Source of the DNA: a virus
Taxonomy: Duplodnaviria > Heunggongvirae > Uroviricota > Caudoviricetes
Length of the DNA: 10,027 nt
Strand: one strand, 5' to 3'
IMG/VR virus record: IMGVR_UViG_2541047945_000003
Within the stretch, counting starts at the first letter, position 1, and each line of letters begins with the position of its first letter. Shown here piece by piece: positions 1-10,027 of the stretch. The position numbers and the translations under genes are program-made. The notes beneath the pieces are model-generated. The model made no database searches, was not told the origin of the DNA, and saw only the letters and a program-made list of their open reading frames with translations.

Positions 1-573
1 CAGAATATGGCGGCGATGCTGACCGGCAGTGAGCAGAACTGGCGCAGCTTCACCCGTTCCGTGCTGTCCATGATGACAGAAATTCTGCTTAAGCAGGCAA
101 TGGTGGGGATTGTCGGGAGTATCGGCAGCGCCATTGGCGGGGCTGTTGGTGGCGGCGCATCCGCGTCAGGCGGTACAGCCATTCAGGCCGCTGCGGCGAA
201 ATTCCATTTTGCAACCGGAGGATTTACGGGAACCGGCGGCAAATATGAGCCAGCGGGGATTGTTCACCGTGGTGAATTTGTCTTCACAAAGGAGGCAACC
301 AGCCGGATTGGCGTGGGGAATCTTTACCGGCTGATGCGCGGCTATGCCACCGGCGGTTATGTCGGTACACCGGGCAGCATGGCAGACAGCCGGTCGCAGG
401 CGTCCGGGACGTTTGAGCAGAATAACCATGTGGTGATTAACAACGACGGCACGAACGGGCAGATAGGTCCGGCTGCTCTGAAGGCAGTGTATGACATGGC
501 CCGCAAGGGTGCCCGTGATGAAATCCAGGCACAGATGCGCGATGGTGGTCTGTTCTCCGGAGGTGGACGATGA
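1..573 (+). CDS. H: Tail tape measure protein H, C-terminal fragment (5' end lies outside the window)
   Basis: Frame-1 ORF is open from base 1 and stops at TGA 571-573. Gly/Ala-rich translation ending ...RDGGLFSGGGR matches the lambda gpH C-terminus as I recall it. Its stop overlaps the M start (ATGA), the standard lambda H-M junction. Confidence 0.88.
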   Translation, partial: QNMAAMLTGSEQNWRSFTRSVLSMMTEILLKQAMVGIVGSIGSAIGGAVGGGASASGGTAIQAAAAKFHFATGGFTGTGGKYEPAGIVHRGEFVFTKEATSRIGVGNLYRLMRGYATGGYVGTPGSMADSRSQASGTFEQNNHVVINNDGTNGQIGPAALKAVYDMARKGARDEIQAQMRDGGLFSGGGR

Positions 574-899
574 AAACCTTCCGCTGGAAAGTGAAACCCG
601 GGATGGATGTGACATCGGCTCCTTCCGTCAGGGAGGTGCGCTTTGGTGATGGCTATTCCCAGCGTGCGCCTGCCGGGCTGAACGCTGACCTGAAAACGTA
701 CAGCGTGACGCTGTCTGTCTCCCGTGAGGAGGCCACGGCGCTGGAGTCGTTTCTGGCTGAGCACGGGGGCTGGAAGGCCTTTCTGTGGACGCCGCCTTAT
801 GGCTACAGGCAGATAAAGGTGACCTGCGCAAAATGGTCGTCGCAGGTCAGTATGTTGCGTGTTGAGTTCAGCGCAGAGTTTAAACAGGTGGTGAACTGA
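570..899 (+). CDS. M: Minor tail protein M
   Basis: 109-aa ORF (MKTFRWKVKPGMDV...) with the length and sequence of lambda gpM from memory. ATG overlaps the H stop and its own stop overlaps the L start (TGATG at 897-901). Confidence 0.9.
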   Translation: MKTFRWKVKPGMDVTSAPSVREVRFGDGYSQRAPAGLNADLKTYSVTLSVSREEATALESFLAEHGGWKAFLWTPPYGYRQIKVTCAKWSSQVSMLRVEFSAEFKQVVN

Positions 900-1597
900 T
901 GCAGGATATCCGGCAGGAAACACTGAATGAATGCACCCGTGCGGAGCAGTCGGCCAGCGTGGTGCTCTGGGAAATCGATCTGACAGAGGTCGGTGGAGAA
1001 CGTTATTTTTTCTGTAATGAGCAGAACGAAAAAGGTGAGCCGGTCACCTGGCAGGGGCGACAGTATCAGCCGTATCCCATTCAGGGGAGTGGTTTTGAAC
1101 TGAATGGCAAAGGCACCAGTACGCGCCCCACGCTGACGGTTTCTAACCTGTACGGTATGGTCACCGGGATGGCGGAAGATATGCAGAGTCTGGTCGGCGG
1201 AACGGTGGTCCGGCGTAAGGTTTACGCCCGTTTTCTGGATGCGGTGAACTTCGTCAACGGAAACAGTGACGCCGATCCGGAGCAGGAGGTGATCAGCCGC
1301 TGGCGCATCGAGCAGTGCAGCGAACTGAGCGCGGTCAGTGCCTCTTTTGTACTGTCCACGCCGACGGAAACGGACGGCGCTGTTTTTCCGGGACGTATCA
1401 TGCTGGCCAACACCTGCACCTGGACCTATCGCGGCGATGAGTGCGGTTATCACGGTCCGGCAGTCGCGGATGAATATGATCAGCCGACGTCCGATATCAC
1501 GAAGGATAAATGCAGCAAATGCCTGAGCGGTTGTAAGTTCCGCAATAACGTCGGCAACTTTGGCGGCTTCCTTTCCATTAACAAACTTTCGCAGTAA
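899..1597 (+). CDS. L: Minor tail protein L
   Basis: 232-aa ORF (MQDIRQETLNECTRAEQSASVVLWEIDL...) matching lambda gpL in length and sequence from memory. The C-terminal Cys cluster (CSKCLSGC) is consistent with the known metal-binding tail of gpL. Start is coupled to the M stop. Confidence 0.9.
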   Translation: MQDIRQETLNECTRAEQSASVVLWEIDLTEVGGERYFFCNEQNEKGEPVTWQGRQYQPYPIQGSGFELNGKGTSTRPTLTVSNLYGMVTGMAEDMQSLVGGTVVRRKVYARFLDAVNFVNGNSDADPEQEVISRWRIEQCSELSAVSASFVLSTPTETDGAVFPGRIMLANTCTWTYRGDECGYHGPAVADEYDQPTSDITKDKCSKCLSGCKFRNNVGNFGGFLSINKLSQ

Positions 1598-1602
1598 ATA
1601 CC

Positions 1603-2346
1603 ATGACACAGACAGAATCAGCGATTCTGGCGCACGCCCGGCGATGTGCGCCAGCGGAGTCGTGCGGCTTCGTGGTAAGCACGCCGGAGGGGGAAAGATA
1701 TTTCCCCTGCGTGAATATCTCCGGTGAGCCGGAGGCGTATTTCCGTATGTCGCCGGAAGACTGGCTGCAGGCAGAAATGCAGGGTGAGATTATGGCGCTG
1801 GTCCACAGCCACCCCGGAGGTCTGCCCTGGCTGAGTGAGGCCGACCGGCGGCTGCAGGTGCAGAGTGATTTGCCGTGGTGGCTGGTCTGCCGGGGGACGA
1901 TTCATAAGTTCCGCTGTGTGCCGCATCTCACCGGGCGGCGCTTTGAGCACGGGGTGACGGACTGTTACACGCTGTTCCGGGATGCTTATCATCTGGCGGG
2001 GATTGAGATGCCGGATTTTCATCGCGGGGATGACTGGTGGCGTCACGGTCAGAATCTCTATCTGGATAATCTGGAGGCCACAGGGCTGTATCAGGTGCCG
2101 TTGTCATCAGCACAACCGGGCGATGTGCTGCTGTGCTGTTTTGGTTCATCGGTGCCGAATCATGCCGCCATTTACTGTGGTGACAGCGAGCTGCTGCACC
2201 ATATTCCTGAACAACTGAGCAAACGAGAGAGGTACACCGACAAATGGCAGCGACGCACACACTCCCTCTGGCGTCACCGGGAATGGCACGCATCTGCCTT
2301 TACGGGGATTTGCAACGATTTGGCCGCCGCATCGACCTTCGTGTGA
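1603..2346 (+). CDS. K: Tail tip assembly protein K (MPN/JAMM plus NlpC/P60 two-domain protein)
   Basis: 247-aa ORF 6 nt after the L stop. The translation has a JAMM-type motif HSHPGGLPWLSEAD (H-x-H-x7-S-x2-D) and downstream Cys/His residues (DCYTL ... LLHH) consistent with an NlpC/P60 fold. The classical lambda annotation starts K at an internal Met (here ATG 1747, MSPEDW...); I prefer 1603 because a complete MPN domain needs the upstream residues. Confidence 0.85.
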   Translation: MTQTESAILAHARRCAPAESCGFVVSTPEGERYFPCVNISGEPEAYFRMSPEDWLQAEMQGEIMALVHSHPGGLPWLSEADRRLQVQSDLPWWLVCRGTIHKFRCVPHLTGRRFEHGVTDCYTLFRDAYHLAGIEMPDFHRGDDWWRHGQNLYLDNLEATGLYQVPLSSAQPGDVLLCCFGSSVPNHAAIYCGDSELLHHIPEQLSKRERYTDKWQRRTHSLWRHREWHASAFTGICNDLAAASTFV

Positions 2347-2915
2347 AAACGGGGGCTGAAGCCATCCGCGCACTTGCCACACAGCTCCCGGCGTTTCGTC
2401 AGAAACTGAGCGACGGCTGGTATCAGGTACGGATTGCCGGGCGGGACGTCAGCACGTCCGGGTTAACGGCGCAGTTACATGAGACTCTGCCTGACGGCGC
2501 TGTGATTCATATTGTTCCCAGAGTCGCCGGGGCCAAGTCAGGGGGCGTATTCCAGATTGTTCTGGGGGCTGCCGCCATTGCCGGATCATTCTTTACTGCC
2601 GGAGCCACCCTTGCAGCATGGGGGGCAGCCATTGGGGCCGGTGGTATGACCGGTATCCTGTTTTCTCTCGGTGCCAGTATGGTGCTCGGTGGTGTGGCGC
2701 AGATGTTGGCACCGAAAGCCAGGACGCCCACGGCAGCAAGTACAGATAACGGCAAACAGAACACCTATTTCTCCTCACTGGATAACATGGTTGCCCAGGG
2801 CAATGTTCTGCCCGTTCTGTACGGTGAAATGCGCGTGGGGTCGCGGGTGGTCTCTCAGGAGATCAGCACGGCAGACGAAGGGGATGGTGGTCAGGTTGTG
2901 GTGATTGGTCGCTGA
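2244..2915 (+). CDS. I: Tail assembly protein I
   Basis: 223-aa ORF (MAATHTLPLASPGMARICLYGDLQRFGRRIDLRVKTGAEAIRAL...) matching lambda gpI from memory, with a Gly/Ala-rich hydrophobic central segment. It overlaps the 3' end of K by about 100 nt in another frame, as in lambda. Confidence 0.9.
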   Translation: MAATHTLPLASPGMARICLYGDLQRFGRRIDLRVKTGAEAIRALATQLPAFRQKLSDGWYQVRIAGRDVSTSGLTAQLHETLPDGAVIHIVPRVAGAKSGGVFQIVLGAAAIAGSFFTAGATLAAWGAAIGAGGMTGILFSLGASMVLGGVAQMLAPKARTPTAASTDNGKQNTYFSSLDNMVAQGNVLPVLYGEMRVGSRVVSQEISTADEGDGGQVVVIGR

Positions 2916-2932
2916 TGAAAAACGTTTATGTG

Positions 2933-2953
2933 AAACCGCCTCCGGGCGGTTTT
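2933..2953 (+). terminator. Short GC hairpin with a weak T-tract in the I-J intergenic region (possible attenuator or RNA structure)
   Basis: AACCGCC-TCCG-GGCGGTT inverted repeat (7-bp stem, 4-nt loop) followed by TTGTCGTTT. The U-tract is interrupted, so this is weak as an intrinsic terminator. Confidence 0.3.
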
Positions 2954-2974
2954 GTCGTTTATGGAGCGTGAGGA

Positions 2975-5900
2975 ATGGGTAAAGGCAGCAGTAAGGGGCA
3001 TACTCCGCGCGAAGCGAAGGACAACCTGAAGTCCACGCAGTTGCTGAGTGTGATCGATGCCATCAGCGAAGGGCCGGTTGAAGGTCCGGTGGATGGATTA
3101 AAAAGCGTGCTGCTGAACAGTACGCCAGTGCTGGACAGTGAGGGGAATACCAACATCTCCGGCGTCACGGTGGTGTTCCGGGCCGGTGAGCAGGAGCAGA
3201 CACCGCCGGAGGGATTTGAATCCTCCGGCTCCGAGACGGTGCTGGGTACGGAAGTGAAATACGACACGCCGATCACCCGGACCATCACGTCGGCAAACAT
3301 TGACCGACTGCGTTTTACCTTCGGCGTGCAGGCACTGGTGGAAACCACCTCAAAGGGGGACAGGAATCCGTCGGAAGTCCGCCTGCTGGTTCAGATACAG
3401 CGTAATGGTGGCTGGGTGACGGAAAAAGACATCACCATTAAGGGCAAAACCACCTCGCAGTATCTGGCCTCGGTGGTGGTGGGTAACCTGCCGCCGCGCC
3501 CGTTCAGTATCCGGATGCGCAGGATGACGCCGGACAGCACCACAGACCAGCTGCAGAACAAAACGCTCTGGTCGTCATACACCGAAATCATCGATGTGAA
3601 ACAGTGCTACCCGAACACGGCACTGGTCGGCGTGCAGGTGGACTCGGAGCAGTTCGGCAGCCAGCAGGTGAGCCGTAATTATCATCTGCGCGGGCGCATT
3701 CTGCAGGTGCCGTCGAACTATAACCCGCAGACGCGGCAATACAGCGGTATCTGGGACGGAACGTTTAAGCCAGCATACAGCAACAACATGGCCTGGTGTC
3801 TGTGGGATATGCTGACCCATCCGCGCTACGGCATGGGGAAACGTCTTGGTGCGGCGGATGTGGACAAATGGGCGCTGTATGTCATCGGCCAGCATTGCGA
3901 TCAGTCGGTGCCGGACGGTTTTGGCGGCACGGAGCCGCGCATCACCTGTAATGCGTACCTGACCACACAGCGCAAGACGTGGGATGTGCTCAGTGATTTC
4001 TGCTCGGCGATGCGCTGTATGCCGGTATGGAACGGGCAGACGCTGACGTTCGTGCAGGACCGACCGTCGGATAAGGTGTGGACCTATAACCGCAGTAATG
4101 TGGTGATGCCGGATGATGGTGCGCCGTTCCGCTACAGCTTCAGCGCCCTGAAGGACCGCCATAATGCCGTTGAGGTGAACTGGATTGACCCGAATAACGG
4201 CTGGGAGACGGCGACAGAGCTTGTGGAGGACACGCAGGCCATTGCCCGTTACGGTCGTAGCGTCACGAAGATGGATGCTTTTGGCTGTACCAGCCGGGGG
4301 CAGGCACATCGCGCCGGGCTGTGGCTGATTAAAACAGAACTGCTGGAAACGCAGACCGTGGACTTCAGCGTGGGTGCCGAAGGGCTTCGCCATGTACCGG
4401 GCGATGTCATTGAAATCTGCGATGATGACTATGCCGGTATCAGCACCGGCGGGCGCGTGCTGGCGGTAAACAGCCAGACCCGGACGCTGACGCTCGACCG
4501 TGAAATCACGCTGCCATCTTCCGGCACCACGCTGATAAGCCTGGTTGACGGGCAGGGGAGTCCGGTCAGCGTGGAGGTTCAGTCCGTCACCGACGGCGTG
4601 AAGGTAAAAGTGAGCCGTGTTCCTGACGGCGTTGCCGAGTACAGCGTGTGGGGGCTGAAGCTGCCGACGCTGCGCCAGCGCCTGTTCCGCTGTGTGAGTA
4701 TCCGTGAGAACGATGACGGTACGTATGCCATCACTGCCGTGCAGCATGTACCGGAGAAAGAAGCCATCGTGGATAACGGGGCGCACTTTGACGGTGACCA
4801 GAGCGGCACGGTGAATGGTGTCACGCCGCCAGCAGTGCAGCATCTGACCGCAGAAGTCACTGCAGACAGCGGGGAATACCAGGTGCTGGCGCGCTGGGAT
4901 ACGCCGAAGGTGGTGAAGGGGGTGAGCTTTATGCTTCGCCTGACCGTGGCAGCGGATGACGGCAGTGAGCGGCTGGTCAGCACGGCCCGGACGACGGAAA
5001 CCACATACCGCTTCACGCAACTGGCGCTGGGAAACTACAGGCTGACAGTCCGGGCGGCAAATGCCTGGGGGCAGCAGGGCGATCCGGCGTCGGTATCGTT
5101 CCGGATTGCCGCACCGGCAGCGCCATCTCGGATTGAGCTGACGCCGGGCTATTTTCAGATAACCGCCACGCCGCATCTTGCCGTTTATGATCCGACGGTA
5201 CAGTTTGAGTTCTGGTTCTCGGAAAAGCGGATTACCGATATCAGGCAGGTTGAAACCACAGCCCGCTATCTTGGCACGGCGCTGTACTGGATAGCTGCCA
5301 GTATCAATATTAAGCCGGGCCATGATTATTATTTTTACGTTCGCAGTGTGAACACCGTTGGCAAATCGGCATTCGTGGAGGCCGTCGGTCGGGCGAGCGA
5401 TGATGCGGAAGGTTACCTGGATTTTTTCAAAGGCCAGATAACCGAATCCCATCTCGGCAAGGAGCTGCTGGAAAAAGTCGAGCTGACGGAGGATAACGCC
5501 AGCAAACTGGAGGAGTTTTCGAAAGAGTGGAAGGACGCCAACGATAAATGGAATGCCATGTGGGGCGTCAAAATTGAGCAGACCAAAGACGGCAAACATT
5601 ATGTCGCGGGGCTTGGCCTCAGCATGGAGGATACGGAGGAAGGCAAACTGAGCCAGTTCCTGGTTGCCGCTAACCGTATCGCGTTTATTGACCCGGCAAA
5701 CGGGAATGAAACGCCGATGTTTGTGGCGCAGGGCAACCAGATATTCATGAACGAAGTGTTCCTGAAGTATCTGACGGCTCCCACCATTACCAGTGGCGGT
5801 AATCCTCCGGCATTTTCCCTGACACCGGACGGGCGGCTGACGGCGAGAAATGCTGATATCAGCGGTAACGTGAATGCGAACTCCGGGACGCTCAATAATG

Positions 5901-6388
5901 TCACGGTAAATGAAAACTGTACGATTAAGGGCATGCTGGAGGCGAACCAGGTCAGAGGTGACTTCGTTAAAACTGTATCCAAATCATTCCCGAAAAAGGC
6001 TGGTACGTGGGGTAACACGGAAACACCAAACGGGACGGTTACAGTCACCATTTACGATGATCATAACTTTGACCGCCAAATCATTATTCCGCCCATTATT
6101 TTTAACGGTGTGGCGTATGACGATCCGGGGAGCGGTAATAACCCGGGAGGTACGCGATACACGGGTTATGGTTTTGAAGTTCGCAAAAATGGCGTATTAA
6201 TCGCATCCAGAGAAACTAAAGGAGCCATTCCCGGTAGTTACAGTGCGGTTATTGATATGCCGAGTGGTGGTGGTAACGTCACTCTGGAGTTTAAGATTTT
6301 CCAGAAAGGCAATCAGGGCGCAGGTAACATCACAGACTGTACGGTGATTGTGACCAAAAAAGCTGCTTCCGGTATCAGTATCCGTTGA
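2975..6388 (+). CDS. J: Central tail fiber / host specificity protein J, with a divergent C-terminal receptor-binding region
   Basis: 1137-aa ORF preceded by AGGA 1 nt upstream of the ATG. The first ~975 residues ([34 protein letters not shown]...) match lambda gpJ closely from memory. The last ~160 residues (from about [14 protein letters not shown]... to ...[10 protein letters not shown]) do not match my recollection of the lambda J C-terminus. Confidence 0.93.
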
Positions 6389-6408
6389 AATATTTATAAC
6401 CCCAATAC

Positions 6409-6436
6409 GGGCGCCAGCAATGGCGCCTTTTTTATT
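6409..6436 (+). terminator. Rho-independent terminator-like hairpin between J and stf
   Basis: GGCGCC (6410-6415), loop AGCAAT, GGCGCC (6422-6427), followed directly by TTTTTTATTT. It lies 21 nt after the J stop. Confidence 0.6.
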
Positions 6437-6448
6437 TGTGGAGTGAGT

Positions 6449-8803
6449 ATGGCAGTACAGATTTCAGGTGTGCTGAAAGATGGTGCGGGAAAACCAATAC
6501 AGAACTGCACTATTCAACTGAAGGCAAAGCGTAACAGCACCACGGTACTGGTGAACACGGTGGCCTCTGAAAATCCGGATGAAGCCGGGCGTTACAGCAT
6601 GGATGTTGAGTATGGCCAGTACAACGTCACCCTGCTGGTTGAAGGTTTTCCGCCTTCACATGCCGGGACCATCACCGTGTATGAAGATTCTAAGCCGGGG
6701 ACGCTGAATGATTTTCTCGGTGCCATGACGGAAGAGGATGTCATGCCGGAGGCATTACGCCGTTTTGAGGCTATGGTGGAAGAAGCAGCACGTAACGCTG
6801 AAGCTGCCTCTCAGAGCGCAGCGGCGGCAAAGAAATCCGAAACTGCAGCGGCATCATCGAAGAACGCGGCGAAAACCTCAGAAACGAATGCAGCTAACAG
6901 CGCACAGGCGGCAGCGGCCTCGCAGACTGCATCGGCAAATTCCGCGACAGCAGCTAAAAAATCAGAAACCAACGCGAAAAACAGCGAGACAGCAGCAAAG
7001 ACGAGCGAAACCAACGCAAAGTCCAGCCAGACGGCAGCGAAAACCAGCGAAACGAATGCTAAAGCCAGTGAAACTGCGGCAAAAAACAGCCAGGCTGCAG
7101 CAGCTGAAAGCGAGAGCGCAGCAGCCGGTTCTGCGACTTCAGCAGCTGGATCAGCAACTGCTGCGGCTAACAGCCAGAAAGCTGCGAAGACGAGTGAAAC
7201 TAACGCAAAGTCCAGCCAGACGGCAGCGAAGACCAGCGAAACGAATGCCAAAGCCAGCGAAACTGCGGCAAAAAACAGTCAGGATGCAGCGGCCCAAAGC
7301 GAGAGTGCCGCAGCTGGTTCTGCAAGTGCGGCAGCTAATAGCCAAAAAGCTGCAAAAACCAGTGAAACTAACGCAAAGACGAGTGAAACAAAAGCAGCAG
7401 CCAGCGAGATAGAAGCAACGTCAGCCGCAACAAGAGCAGAGAATGCAGCCCGGATTGCAGAAGATGCCGCTGATCCTGCTTCAGTCCCTCCGCTTCCTGA
7501 TATCTGGCTACCCTTGAATGATTCTCTGGAAGCGATAACAGGGTATGCCCCGGGCTATAAAACAATAACCATCGGCAGTGATGAAATAACAATGCCTGTT
7601 AATGGCATATGCCAATTTAGCCGCGCTTCATCAGCAACGTATATTGATAAGTCCGGGCATATTACCGTGGCAGGGAATAACGTTCCTCGTTTTGAAAAAT
7701 ATGGTTTGCTGATAGAGAATCAGCGAACAAACATGTTCGTAAATAGTTTTAATCCTGATGCGTGGAATAAAAGCGGTGGTATATCTGTAACATCATCAAC
7801 AGATGAATTTGAGTTTAAATATGGACGTTTCACAGTAGGAAGTGAGATAGCAGGAACGACAACAGGGAGAAATATATGCACAGTTGCTGGTAATAAAGGC
7901 ATAGATGTGACTGGCGATGATCAGTACAGTAAAGGTCCGTATGTTACCGCGTCGTTCAGGGTAAGAAGTGATCTCAATGTTCGCGCACGTATCCGTTTTG
8001 AACGGTATAACTCGGAAGGATACACTTTCCTTTGTGACGCCTATTTGTCATTACAGACTCATGAACTACAAATTACGGGTGGTAATGCCCAGCTATTAAC
8101 AGCAAACTTTGAAATCGACCCTGGTAGTGGATGGATATATTTTCAGGCAACACTGAAATGTCTGCCAGAATGGGGAATGGTTGGTACGCAGCTGCAAATT
8201 GCAGCCGACAGAGCAGTGGGGGCTTTTGCAACAGGTGACTGGATAGAAGTAACCACCCCGCAATTCGAGTATGGTGCTTGTGCAACTTCCTTTATCATAA
8301 CGACAACAGAGCCAGCGACTCGTGCATCAGATTTATGTAAATTTCCGCTGATGAAAAATATGTATACCATGCCTTTTACGTTCATGGTGGAAGTCCATAA
8401 AAACTGGTTTATTTCTCATAATGCTGCACCGCGTGTCATTGATTCAGAAAATCACCAGTCCGGAGGCCCATTTATTATGGGGTTTGGTTCTTCTGGAACT
8501 ATCAGTCAGGATGGTTATTCGTATTGCGATATAGGCGGGGCTAACCGGCGTGTATATGAGTCATGCGGAGTAAGAGATCTCGTTATGGGATTCAGGGTTA
8601 AGGCTGACGGCATGACATGCTCATTTGCAAATAAGAATATAAGCACTGAAACCAAAACAGTATGGAAATATATTCGTGAAGCAGCCGTGATTCGTATCGG
8701 GGGGCAAACGACGACAGGATTACGACACCTTAATGGTCATATAAAAAACCTCCGTTTCTGGAACAGAGCATTGTCAGATACGCAGCTTAAGGAATACGTA
8801 TAA
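6449..8803 (+). CDS. stf: Side tail fiber protein (Stf-like): lambda-type N-terminal domain, repeat shaft, divergent C-terminal putative receptor-binding domain
   Basis: ATG 6449 with GGAG 5 nt upstream (the ORF track begins at an in-frame GTG at 6443). The N-terminus MAVQISGVLKDGAGKPIQNCTIQLKAKRNSTTVLVNTVASENPDEAGRYSMDVEYGQY... resembles the lambda Stf N-terminal domain from memory. The middle is an Ala/Lys/Ser/Glu/Thr-rich repeat region (KTSETNAK units). The C-terminal ~430 aa is lower-GC and ends ...IKNLRFWNRALSDTQLKEYV, which resembles the terminal strand of LamG/concanavalin-A-like jelly-roll domains. Confidence 0.85.
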   Translation: MAVQISGVLKDGAGKPIQNCTIQLKAKRNSTTVLVNTVASENPDEAGRYSMDVEYGQYNVTLLVEGFPPSHAGTITVYEDSKPGTLNDFLGAMTEEDVMPEALRRFEAMVEEAARNAEAASQSAAAAKKSETAAASSKNAAKTSETNAANSAQAAAASQTASANSATAAKKSETNAKNSETAAKTSETNAKSSQTAAKTSETNAKASETAAKNSQAAAAESESAAAGSATSAAGSATAAANSQKAAKTSETNAKSSQTAAKTSETNAKASETAAKNSQDAAAQSESAAAGSASAAANSQKAAKTSETNAKTSETKAAASEIEATSAATRAENAARIAEDAADPASVPPLPDIWLPLNDSLEAITGYAPGYKTITIGSDEITMPVNGICQFSRASSATYIDKSGHITVAGNNVPRFEKYGLLIENQRTNMFVNSFNPDAWNKSGGISVTSSTDEFEFKYGRFTVGSEIAGTTTGRNICTVAGNKGIDVTGDDQYSKGPYVTASFRVRSDLNVRARIRFERYNSEGYTFLCDAYLSLQTHELQITGGNAQLLTANFEIDPGSGWIYFQATLKCLPEWGMVGTQLQIAADRAVGAFATGDWIEVTTPQFEYGACATSFIITTTEPATRASDLCKFPLMKNMYTMPFTFMVEVHKNWFISHNAAPRVIDSENHQSGGPFIMGFGSSGTISQDGYSYCDIGGANRRVYESCGVRDLVMGFRVKADGMTCSFANKNISTETKTVWKYIREAAVIRIGGQTTTGLRHLNGHIKNLRFWNRALSDTQLKEYV
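6998..7354 (+). repeat. In-frame tandem duplication (~189-bp unit, two near-identical copies) inside the stf shaft, within a longer degenerate ~27-nt periodic region (~6820-7400)
   Basis: Copy A 6998-7186 and copy B 7187-7354 align almost base for base (aagacgag[c/t]gaaac[c/t]aacgcaaagtccagccagacggcagcgaa...ggttctgc). Copy B lacks about 21 nt near its 3' end. Protein level: KTSETNAKSSQTAAKTSETNAKASETAAKNSQ[A/D]AAA[E/Q]SESAAAGSA... occurs twice. Confidence 0.8.
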
Positions 8804-9072
8804 TGCGGGATATAACATTACGATTCGATAACAGAGAACAGTTTAACGCAATTGTATATGACAGTGGCCTGTTCAGTCTTGAAGAAGAAAATGGGGTTCT
8901 TGTTGATGTTATTGGCTGCATTATTGATTACGAGGAGCCAGAAAACGAAAGATGTACAGGCATTGATCGCGGTGGTTTTTTCGTAAACATGAGGATTGTT
9001 GATGGCAGTAAAAACATATCTTCTTTAATGCCTTTCATTACGACAGATCAGCATGTAAGGACATGGGCTTAA
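8803..9072 (+). CDS. Hypothetical protein (89 aa), start overlapping the stf stop; possible non-canonical fiber-associated factor or moron
   Basis: ATG 8803-8805 overlaps the stf TAA (TAATG), with AAGGA 9 nt upstream. AT-rich, acidic translation (MRDITLRFDNREQFNAIVYDSGLFSLEEENGVLVDVIGCIIDYEEPENER...). I recognise no family, and it does not resemble the canonical lambda Tfa as I recall it. Confidence 0.5.
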   Translation: MRDITLRFDNREQFNAIVYDSGLFSLEEENGVLVDVIGCIIDYEEPENERCTGIDRGGFFVNMRIVDGSKNISSLMPFITTDQHVRTWA

Positions 9073-9084
9073 TGGAGTAAGACA

Positions 9085-9810
9085 ATGGTTACAAAAACAG
9101 TAATTCCTGATGACATCAAAACGCTAAAATCCGATGTTAGTAAACTAAAAACTGATCAAGGAAGCTATGCAACAAAATCATATGTAGACAATAAAACAAC
9201 ATGGAATAGTTATTGCAATGTAATCTATGATCAAAAGGCATTGCCGACCACTGGAACTATATTTAGCGGTAAGATTCACTTGTCAAATAAGACTGGTGAA
9301 ACGGAAAACGCTTATAGTGATATATATACCAGAAAAAATATTGATGGTACTAAAGATACAATGACGAGGATCGTCACACATAACGGGACAAAAGGTATCT
9401 TTTGGGACTTTAGTGATCTTTACGGAGGAACTTTAATTTTCCCTGGCACTGCTGGTTATTTGAAAATGGGTAAATGCCTCATGTCCTATGGGGATCGTGT
9501 AGATAATGCCCTGATTAAATTTGATTATACAGACACACTACAGATCAAATATGCTAATCATGGTTCGACCATGACACTAAACACACAGGGAACCGCTCAC
9601 GCTGGCGTTACTGCTAAATTGTGGGGCAATTCTAGCCGTCCGGTTGTTTATGAAGTTGGTGTAGATGGTGGGGCTTTTATATTCTTCGGTCAAAAACAAA
9701 CAGATGACACATATGCATTTGCTGTTAATGGTGCATGTCAAGCGACCGCATTTAACCAGATAGACTGGCCCCCTGAATCACCAGACAACCAATATCACTT
9801 ATTTAAGTGA
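9085..9810 (+). CDS. Hypothetical protein (241 aa as read), 3' end fused to or truncated by IS2; native sequence ends at about codon 225
   Basis: ATG 9085 with GGAG 7 nt upstream. AT-rich ORF with an N-terminus ([31 protein letters not shown]) reminiscent of fibre-type proteins, then a Gly/Thr/Tyr-rich region. From nt 9761 the frame continues through the IS2 terminal repeat ([16 protein letters not shown]) to TGA 9808-9810, so the C-terminus is IS-derived. Confidence 0.55.
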
Positions 9811-9811
9811 T
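9794..9811. promoter_or_regulatory. Perfect palindrome in the IS2 terminal region upstream of insC (candidate OrfA operator / promoter element)
   Basis: ATCACTTA-TT-TAAGTGAT is a perfect 8-bp inverted repeat with a 2-bp spacer, about 40 nt upstream of the insC ATG. The IS2 orfA-proximal end is known to carry the orfA promoter and repressor binding; the exact site assignment is my inference. Confidence 0.35.
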
Positions 9812-9851
9812 AGTCTTAATACTAGTTTTTAGGCTAGTCATTGGAGAGCAG

Positions 9852-10027
9852 ATGATTGATGTCTTAGGACCGGAGAAACGCAGACGGCGTACCACACAGG
9901 AAAAGATCGCAATTGTTCAGCAGAGCTTTGAACCAGGGATGACGGTCTCCCTCGTTGCCCGGCAACATGGTGTAGCAGCCAGCCAGTTATTTCTCTGGCG
10001 TAAGCAATACCAGGAAGGAAGTCTTAC
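9852..10027 (+). CDS. insC: IS2 transposase OrfA (InsC), N-terminal 58 codons; 3' end outside the window
   Basis: Translation [58 protein letters not shown] matches IS2 InsC from memory, including a helix-turn-helix-like segment. No stop codon before the window ends. Confidence 0.9.

Follow-up and report, generated by a model that had tools for sequence, protein, structure and literature searches.

The window analysed here, a 10,027-nt stretch of DNA, carries a lambda-type tail module that comprises the C-terminal end of the tape measure gene, the genes M, L, K, I and J, a 786-aa Stf-like ORF (6443-8803, plus strand; Pfam phage_tail_N, E = 6e-68, and PHROG matches), an 89-aa ORF (8803-9072, plus strand) and a 241-codon ORF, orf241 (9085-9810). 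The two ORFs upstream of orf241 belong to the side tail-fibre module, and the interval 6443..9072 matches phrog_1419 and phrog_1361. The 786-aa ORF is unbroken in the window and is one 'side tail fiber protein' in Escherichia phage PhiR11_1; the RefSeq/PGAP annotation of E. coli LC-1302-2020 gives it as two entries, of which one is a partial pseudogene ('prophage tail fiber N-terminal domain') and the other a 'phage head spike fiber domain-containing protein', a division that looks like an annotation artefact. A 674-aa ORF antisense to the J gene (3575-5599, minus strand) probably owes its open frame to chance, lying as it does opposite a long gene with biased codon use.

Positions 1-9760 of the window are 99.9% identical to the tail region of phage PhiR11_1 (PV340547.1), and the homology to this phage and to every IS-free allele of orf241 ends exactly at 9760 (query position 676). 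The sequence from 9761 onward reads TAGACTGGCCCCCTGAATC..., and the interval 9761..10027 on the plus strand aligns without gaps, over 267/267 bases and at 97.4% identity, with the first 267 bp of IS2A from K-12 MG1655. The earlier note, which had placed the start of an IS2 terminal sequence at about 9761, was therefore right on this point. The window holds the left end of the element, the first 267 of its 1331 bp, with the remainder beyond the window edge; it includes the start of IS2 orfA (insC; 9852..10027, plus strand), whose ATG is at position 92 of the IS, the same place as in K-12 insC1, and which runs in the same direction as the tail-fibre gene.

The right end of the element and the second copy of the target-site duplication lie outside the window and were taken from an identical public genome, that of LC-1302-2020 (NZ_CP091756.1), in which the locus overlaps the window over 4943 bases with 0 mismatches. 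There the full IS2 measures 1331 bp (L001 4677-6007) and matches K-12 IS2A at 1299/1331 positions (97.6% identity) with no indels; under the ISfinder convention, an isoform shares at least 95% nucleotide identity with the reference IS2. The imperfect terminal inverted repeats typical of IS2 are present (IRL TAGACTGGCCCCC..., IRR ...GGGGCAAATCCA, compared with K-12 IS2A). OrfA is intact at 121 aa, the A6G slippery site AAAAAAG is found at IS position 409, and OrfB is open and, judging from the alignment, near-identical to IS2 InsD; PGAP labels the element 'IS3 family transposase, programmed frameshift'. Each of the structural features of IS2 for which we tested was found, and the element is an IS2 isoform.

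The two ends of the element are flanked by the same five bases. The left copy of CCAGA occupies 9756..9760; at the right end in LC-1302-2020 the terminal ...GGGGCAAATCCA is followed by CCAGA (L001 6008-6012) and then by CCTCTGACC, the sequence past the second copy continuing with CCTCTGACCGAG. The IS-free allele has a single CCAGA, in the context AACCAGACCTCTGACC, and the alleles of FDAARGOS_1249 and CEA106S read AACCAGACCTCTGACCGAG across the site. The target duplication that had been predicted from the left junction is thus present at the other end of the IS2 in a genome identical to the window.

IS2 is multicopy, with 15-16 matching places in each genome that carries the junction, and repeats of this kind can be mis-assembled, so that a false join at an IS2 copy is a conceivable source of the chimeric sequence. 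However, we found the identical junction in two complete genomes that are independent of each other, one from Italy and the other from Israel (LC-1302-2020 and MMC-J-0105; 2/5426 complete E. coli genomes searched), both of whose chromosomes are 100% identical to the window over 9085-10027. Moreover, the 5-bp duplication is perfect at both ends of the IS, and its in silico excision exactly restores the gene. On these three grounds we reject an assembly artefact, to which we assign next to no probability.

The interval 9085..9760 (plus strand) is the 5' part of a lateral or side tail-fibre gene, comprising codons 1-225 of a native 346 plus the first base of codon 226. It is 100% identical to nt 1-676 of an intact allele of 1041 nt that is found in two E. 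coli genomes, FDAARGOS_1249 and CEA106S, and, with identical sequence, in phage PhiR11_1. The encoded 346-aa protein, WP_001703036.1, is annotated as 'tail fiber domain-containing protein', and members of this gene family are present over at least 80% of their length in 610 genomes, the family as a whole occurring in roughly 700 E. coli genomes. The IS2 sits between nt 675 and 676 of the 1041, after codon 225 of 346, or at 65% of the gene. The proposal that the insertion lay in the 3' end of the ORF was correct in placing it inside the ORF but overstated how near the end it is, as a full domain is removed.

Orf241 is continuous across the junction, and this open frame is what could speak for an IS2 that entered at or downstream of the native stop codon, leaving the protein intact or just extended by 16 residues. 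Alleles without the IS, 100% identical as far as the junction, nevertheless run on for another 121 codons, and the phrog_4563 'tail fiber protein' profile has 346 positions, of which orf241 covers only 1-226. Alignment to IS-free alleles, a check that the earlier note had suggested, thereby recovers the native 3' end and places the IS boundary short of, not past, the native stop. An intact or extended gene has practically no chance of being the correct reading, and the idea of a gene extended by the IS is rejected on the evidence of the IS-free alleles and the length of the PHROG profile. Because the IS-free alleles run 121 codons further, the comparison of sequences shows that the orf241 gene is truncated and not extended. 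Of the two possibilities that had been offered, truncation or extension, it is the former that stands: a protein of 346 aa is replaced by 225 native residues plus 16 encoded by the IS, with 121 residues lost. RefSeq labels both gene fragments 'incomplete' (partial tail-fibre pseudogene) and places them adjoining an IS3-family transposase.

The chimeric tail of orf241 spans 9760..9810 on the plus strand, as seen from its translation and from comparison with the native protein, to which the first 225 codons are identical. Codon 226 (9760-9762, ATA) is mixed, its first base native and the other two from the IS, codons 227-241 are encoded by IS2, and translation ends at the TGA at 9808-9810. Each of the three frames that lead into IS2 from its left end meets a stop within 50 nt, that of orf241 being the longest. 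Residues 215-241 (window 9727-9810) match the last 28 of the 97 positions of phrog_25059, a family of unknown function (E = 2e-5), which may have been built from other read-through ORFs at IS2 junctions in phage records.

The TGA belongs to the right arm of TATCACTTA-tt-TAAGTGATA, a perfect 9+9 palindrome (9793-9801 and 9804-9812) that a repeat search located at IS2 positions 33-52. The translation and this repeat together bear out the claim that the orf241 frame reads through for 16 codons to a stop within the IS2 palindrome. Binding of the OrfA (InsA) repressor has been reported at residues 39-48 of IRL, just upstream of the weak promoter P_IRL (PMC3299598), and the palindrome overlaps this reported binding site. 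The centre of the palindrome is TT here and AA in K-12 IS2A (ATCACTTAttTAAGTGAT versus ATCACTTAaaTAAGTGAT), and the 18-mer exactly matches the reverse complement of its K-12 counterpart; the exchange could have come about by inversion of the hairpin centre or by two point mutations. The TT centre is common to the IS2 copies of CEA106S, MMC-J-0105 and phage PhiR11_1, whereas the copy of F719 has AA.

The part of the gene beyond the insertion site encodes a recognisable domain. The intact protein matches Pfam PF13884, Peptidase_S74 ('chaperone of endosialidase'), at residues 227-278 with 50.4 bits against a cut-off of 22, and a Pfam search with the 241-aa ORF of the window matched no family. The break lies one codon before the domain, which in the intact allele starts with the predicted catalytic S227 and has K232 five residues on (S227-DRDL-K232, preceded by T226 at the predicted cleavage site). 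The motif SDRDLK(D/E)N is kept in 6/6 full-length homologues aligned, from Nonagvirus, T5-like phages and the Stf of the lambdoid phage mEp460, and in this alignment the window ORF departs at the residue directly before the Ser. S74 chaperone domains fold into tentacle hairpins and a C-terminal trimeric coiled coil. A search of PDB sequences with the intact 346-aa protein gave no match, and the same search with the C-terminal 121 aa gave no significant one: the best relevant match, at E = 0.12, was the long tail fibre distal subunit 6f45, and the other marginal matches were to designed coiled-coil and repeat proteins, with short coiled-coil matches over the last 30 residues. Given that no PDB match is significant, the fold assignment rests on Pfam and on conservation of the motif. 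The whole folding and predicted autocleavage domain, 121 residues, is separated from the fibre body.

Spikes of K1F and phi29 made without their C-terminal domain aggregate (PMC3357383). Since related fibres and tailspikes need the S74 domain for trimer folding, after which the domain releases itself by cleavage at the conserved Ser, the 241-aa product is, by analogy, most likely misfolded or aggregated and non-functional; no trimeric fibre would form, and the gene is most likely dead, a pseudogene. An alternative is that the truncated ORF encodes a functional fibre that is in effect already matured, perhaps folded with the help of a chaperone domain supplied in trans by a paralogue from another prophage. 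The native part of orf241 (residues 1-225) does nearly coincide with the predicted mature protein (residues 1-226), and some genomes have up to 4 places that match the tail-fibre gene family. However, S74 chaperones work in cis, as a C-terminal template for trimerisation, without which the K1F and phi29 proteins aggregate, and the product here would carry a foreign tail of 16 residues in place of the cleavage site. At the junction no start codon is available to the 3' fragment downstream, and this fragment is broken in turn by a second insertion element, ISEc23. In addition, both the early region and pR are missing from the prophage, which makes expression of the late genes doubtful. We therefore regard a functional truncated fibre as very unlikely; should the product nevertheless fold, alone or with a chaperone in trans, nature would offer an exception to the rule that S74 chaperones must act in cis, an outcome to which we attach equally little probability. 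The preferred reading, a misfolded product of a broken gene, implies that the 241-codon ORF would be a pseudogene fragment rather than a separate kind of tail fibre whose C-terminus is new, its last 16 residues being the left end of IS2.

The insertion might also have been retained for its effect on regulation, with IS2 promoters (P_IRL, outward-reading or hybrid) driving downstream genes. IS2 does carry a weak inward promoter and forms promoters at junctions (PMC3299598), and the terminator-like hairpin that the IS-free allele has after its native stop has been moved about 3.9 kb further downstream. However, the only sequences downstream of the IS2 are the 3' fragment of the pseudogene, ISEc23 and a 95-aa ORF of unknown function. 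Scanning 9000-10027 for the sigma-70 consensus gave no promoter-like site, a result that neither supports nor excludes the weak extended -10 of P_IRL, and the insertion is rare among complete genomes (2/5426). Adaptive regulation is thus an improbable account of the insertion, and the suggestion that IS2 promoter activity could affect downstream genes found no support.

In NZ_CP091756.1 the prophage lies between bioA/ybhB and ybhC, which is the lambda att region (3318000-3366000, L009), and retains Q and the lysis, head and tail genes. Its morons are iss and a gene for an ompC-like porin. Between the replication gene O and a 5'-truncated integrase, an IS3-family element stands in place of the immunity and recombination genes, and for this reason the prophage is defective. 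A second insertion, ISEc23 (IS66 family, 2532 bp), disrupts the 3' fragment of the same tail-fibre gene 10 codons before the native stop; it starts at L001 6358 (it is also seen in L008), about 600 bp past the right IS2 end and outside the window, and is flanked by an 8-bp target duplication, AATTGAGG. Removing IS2 and ISEc23 in silico, together with one copy of each target duplication, gives the intact allele with 0/1041 mismatches. This exact restoration shows that both insertions were simple and recent. MMC-J-0105 has the same two insertions and an extra IS3-family element in stf, a pattern that fits clonal inheritance followed by continued accumulation of IS elements. The prophage is defective and decaying, and the view that its distal region is in decay finds support both in the ISEc23 in the same gene and in the IS3-family element beside the truncated integrase.

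Other members of this prophage family have also been hit by IS elements. In F719 an IS2 lies within the S74 domain of an 89%-identical homologue (L004 3753-5083, target duplication ACGCT), in CEA106S an IS2 interrupts stf (L003 1052-2382, target duplication CCCAT), and in FDAARGOS_1249 stf contains an IS5. Phage PhiR11_1 has an IS2 near the right end of its genome, on the minus strand (L007, target duplication GAAAC). Between the IS2 copies of CEA106S, PhiR11_1 and the window there are 0-1 nt differences, and the F719 copy is about 46 nt away. Independent IS2 insertions in the tail-fibre module are therefore those in the present gene, in the F719 homologue and in stf of CEA106S, the PhiR11_1 copy lying outside the module; elements other than IS2 that have struck the module are the IS5 and the IS3-family element in stf and the ISEc23 in the present gene. 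This distribution may point to recurrent targeting of the prophage family by IS elements; a preference for its tail-fibre module is a reading to which we give little probability.

Taken together, these observations make us confident that an IS2 copy of 1331 bp transposed recently, in a simple event, into the lateral tail-fibre gene (346 codons) of a lambda-like prophage at the bio/ybhC locus of E. coli. IS2 entered between nt 675 and 676, reading in the direction of the gene, and the target CCAGA became duplicated. The open frame now proceeds through 225 native codons, crosses the junction and continues for 16 codons of the IS2 left end before stopping at the TGA in the operator palindrome. 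The S74 chaperone domain, from SDRDLK onward, is cut from the fibre body, and the product most likely misfolds or aggregates. The insertion would represent one step in the IS-driven decay of a prophage that was already defective.

The insertion is an ordinary, textbook IS2 event that is already annotated in public genomes, and there is nothing new in it as such. It has little import beyond annotation, although it provides useful context for scoring the intactness of prophages or for mining receptor-binding proteins. What the locus does document is the stepwise erosion of a lambdoid prophage by IS elements, while its near relative PhiR11_1 stays infectious.

Comparison with known systems places each part of the locus. 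The element differs from IS2A of K-12 by 32 substitutions and shares with it the length of 1331 bp, the ends TAGACTGG.../...CAAATCCA, a 5-bp target duplication, and orfA and orfB with the A6G frameshift site. In K-12, IS2A interrupts yaiX, and the present IS2 likewise divides its host gene into annotated fragments. In the T5 fibre protein pb1 the homologous domain is an intramolecular chaperone that is released by self-cleavage at Thr1263-Ser1264, where the Ser is activated by Lys1269 (PMC4690869). The spacing of Ser1264 and Lys1269, S-x4-K, is the same as that of S227 and K232 in the intact allele, the site falls between T and S as predicted here, and fibre proteins of T5-like phages are 41-48% identical to the intact allele across the S74 part. 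The intact allele thus resembles the S74 chaperone fibres in having S-x4-K at the start of the domain, followed by a heptad-like C-terminal helix. It differs from them in its short fibre body of 226 aa, encoded by a separate gene downstream of a Stf-like protein, and the copy in the window differs further in being without the domain. A further comparison is with PhiR11_1; no source paper for the PhiR (ECOR) phages turned up in a search of the literature. This phage has the same gene order and an identical tail-fibre gene, but in PhiR11_1 the gene is intact and the phage forms plaques and has been propagated on K-12; it carries the same IS2 isoform, 1 nt apart from the present copy, at another site.
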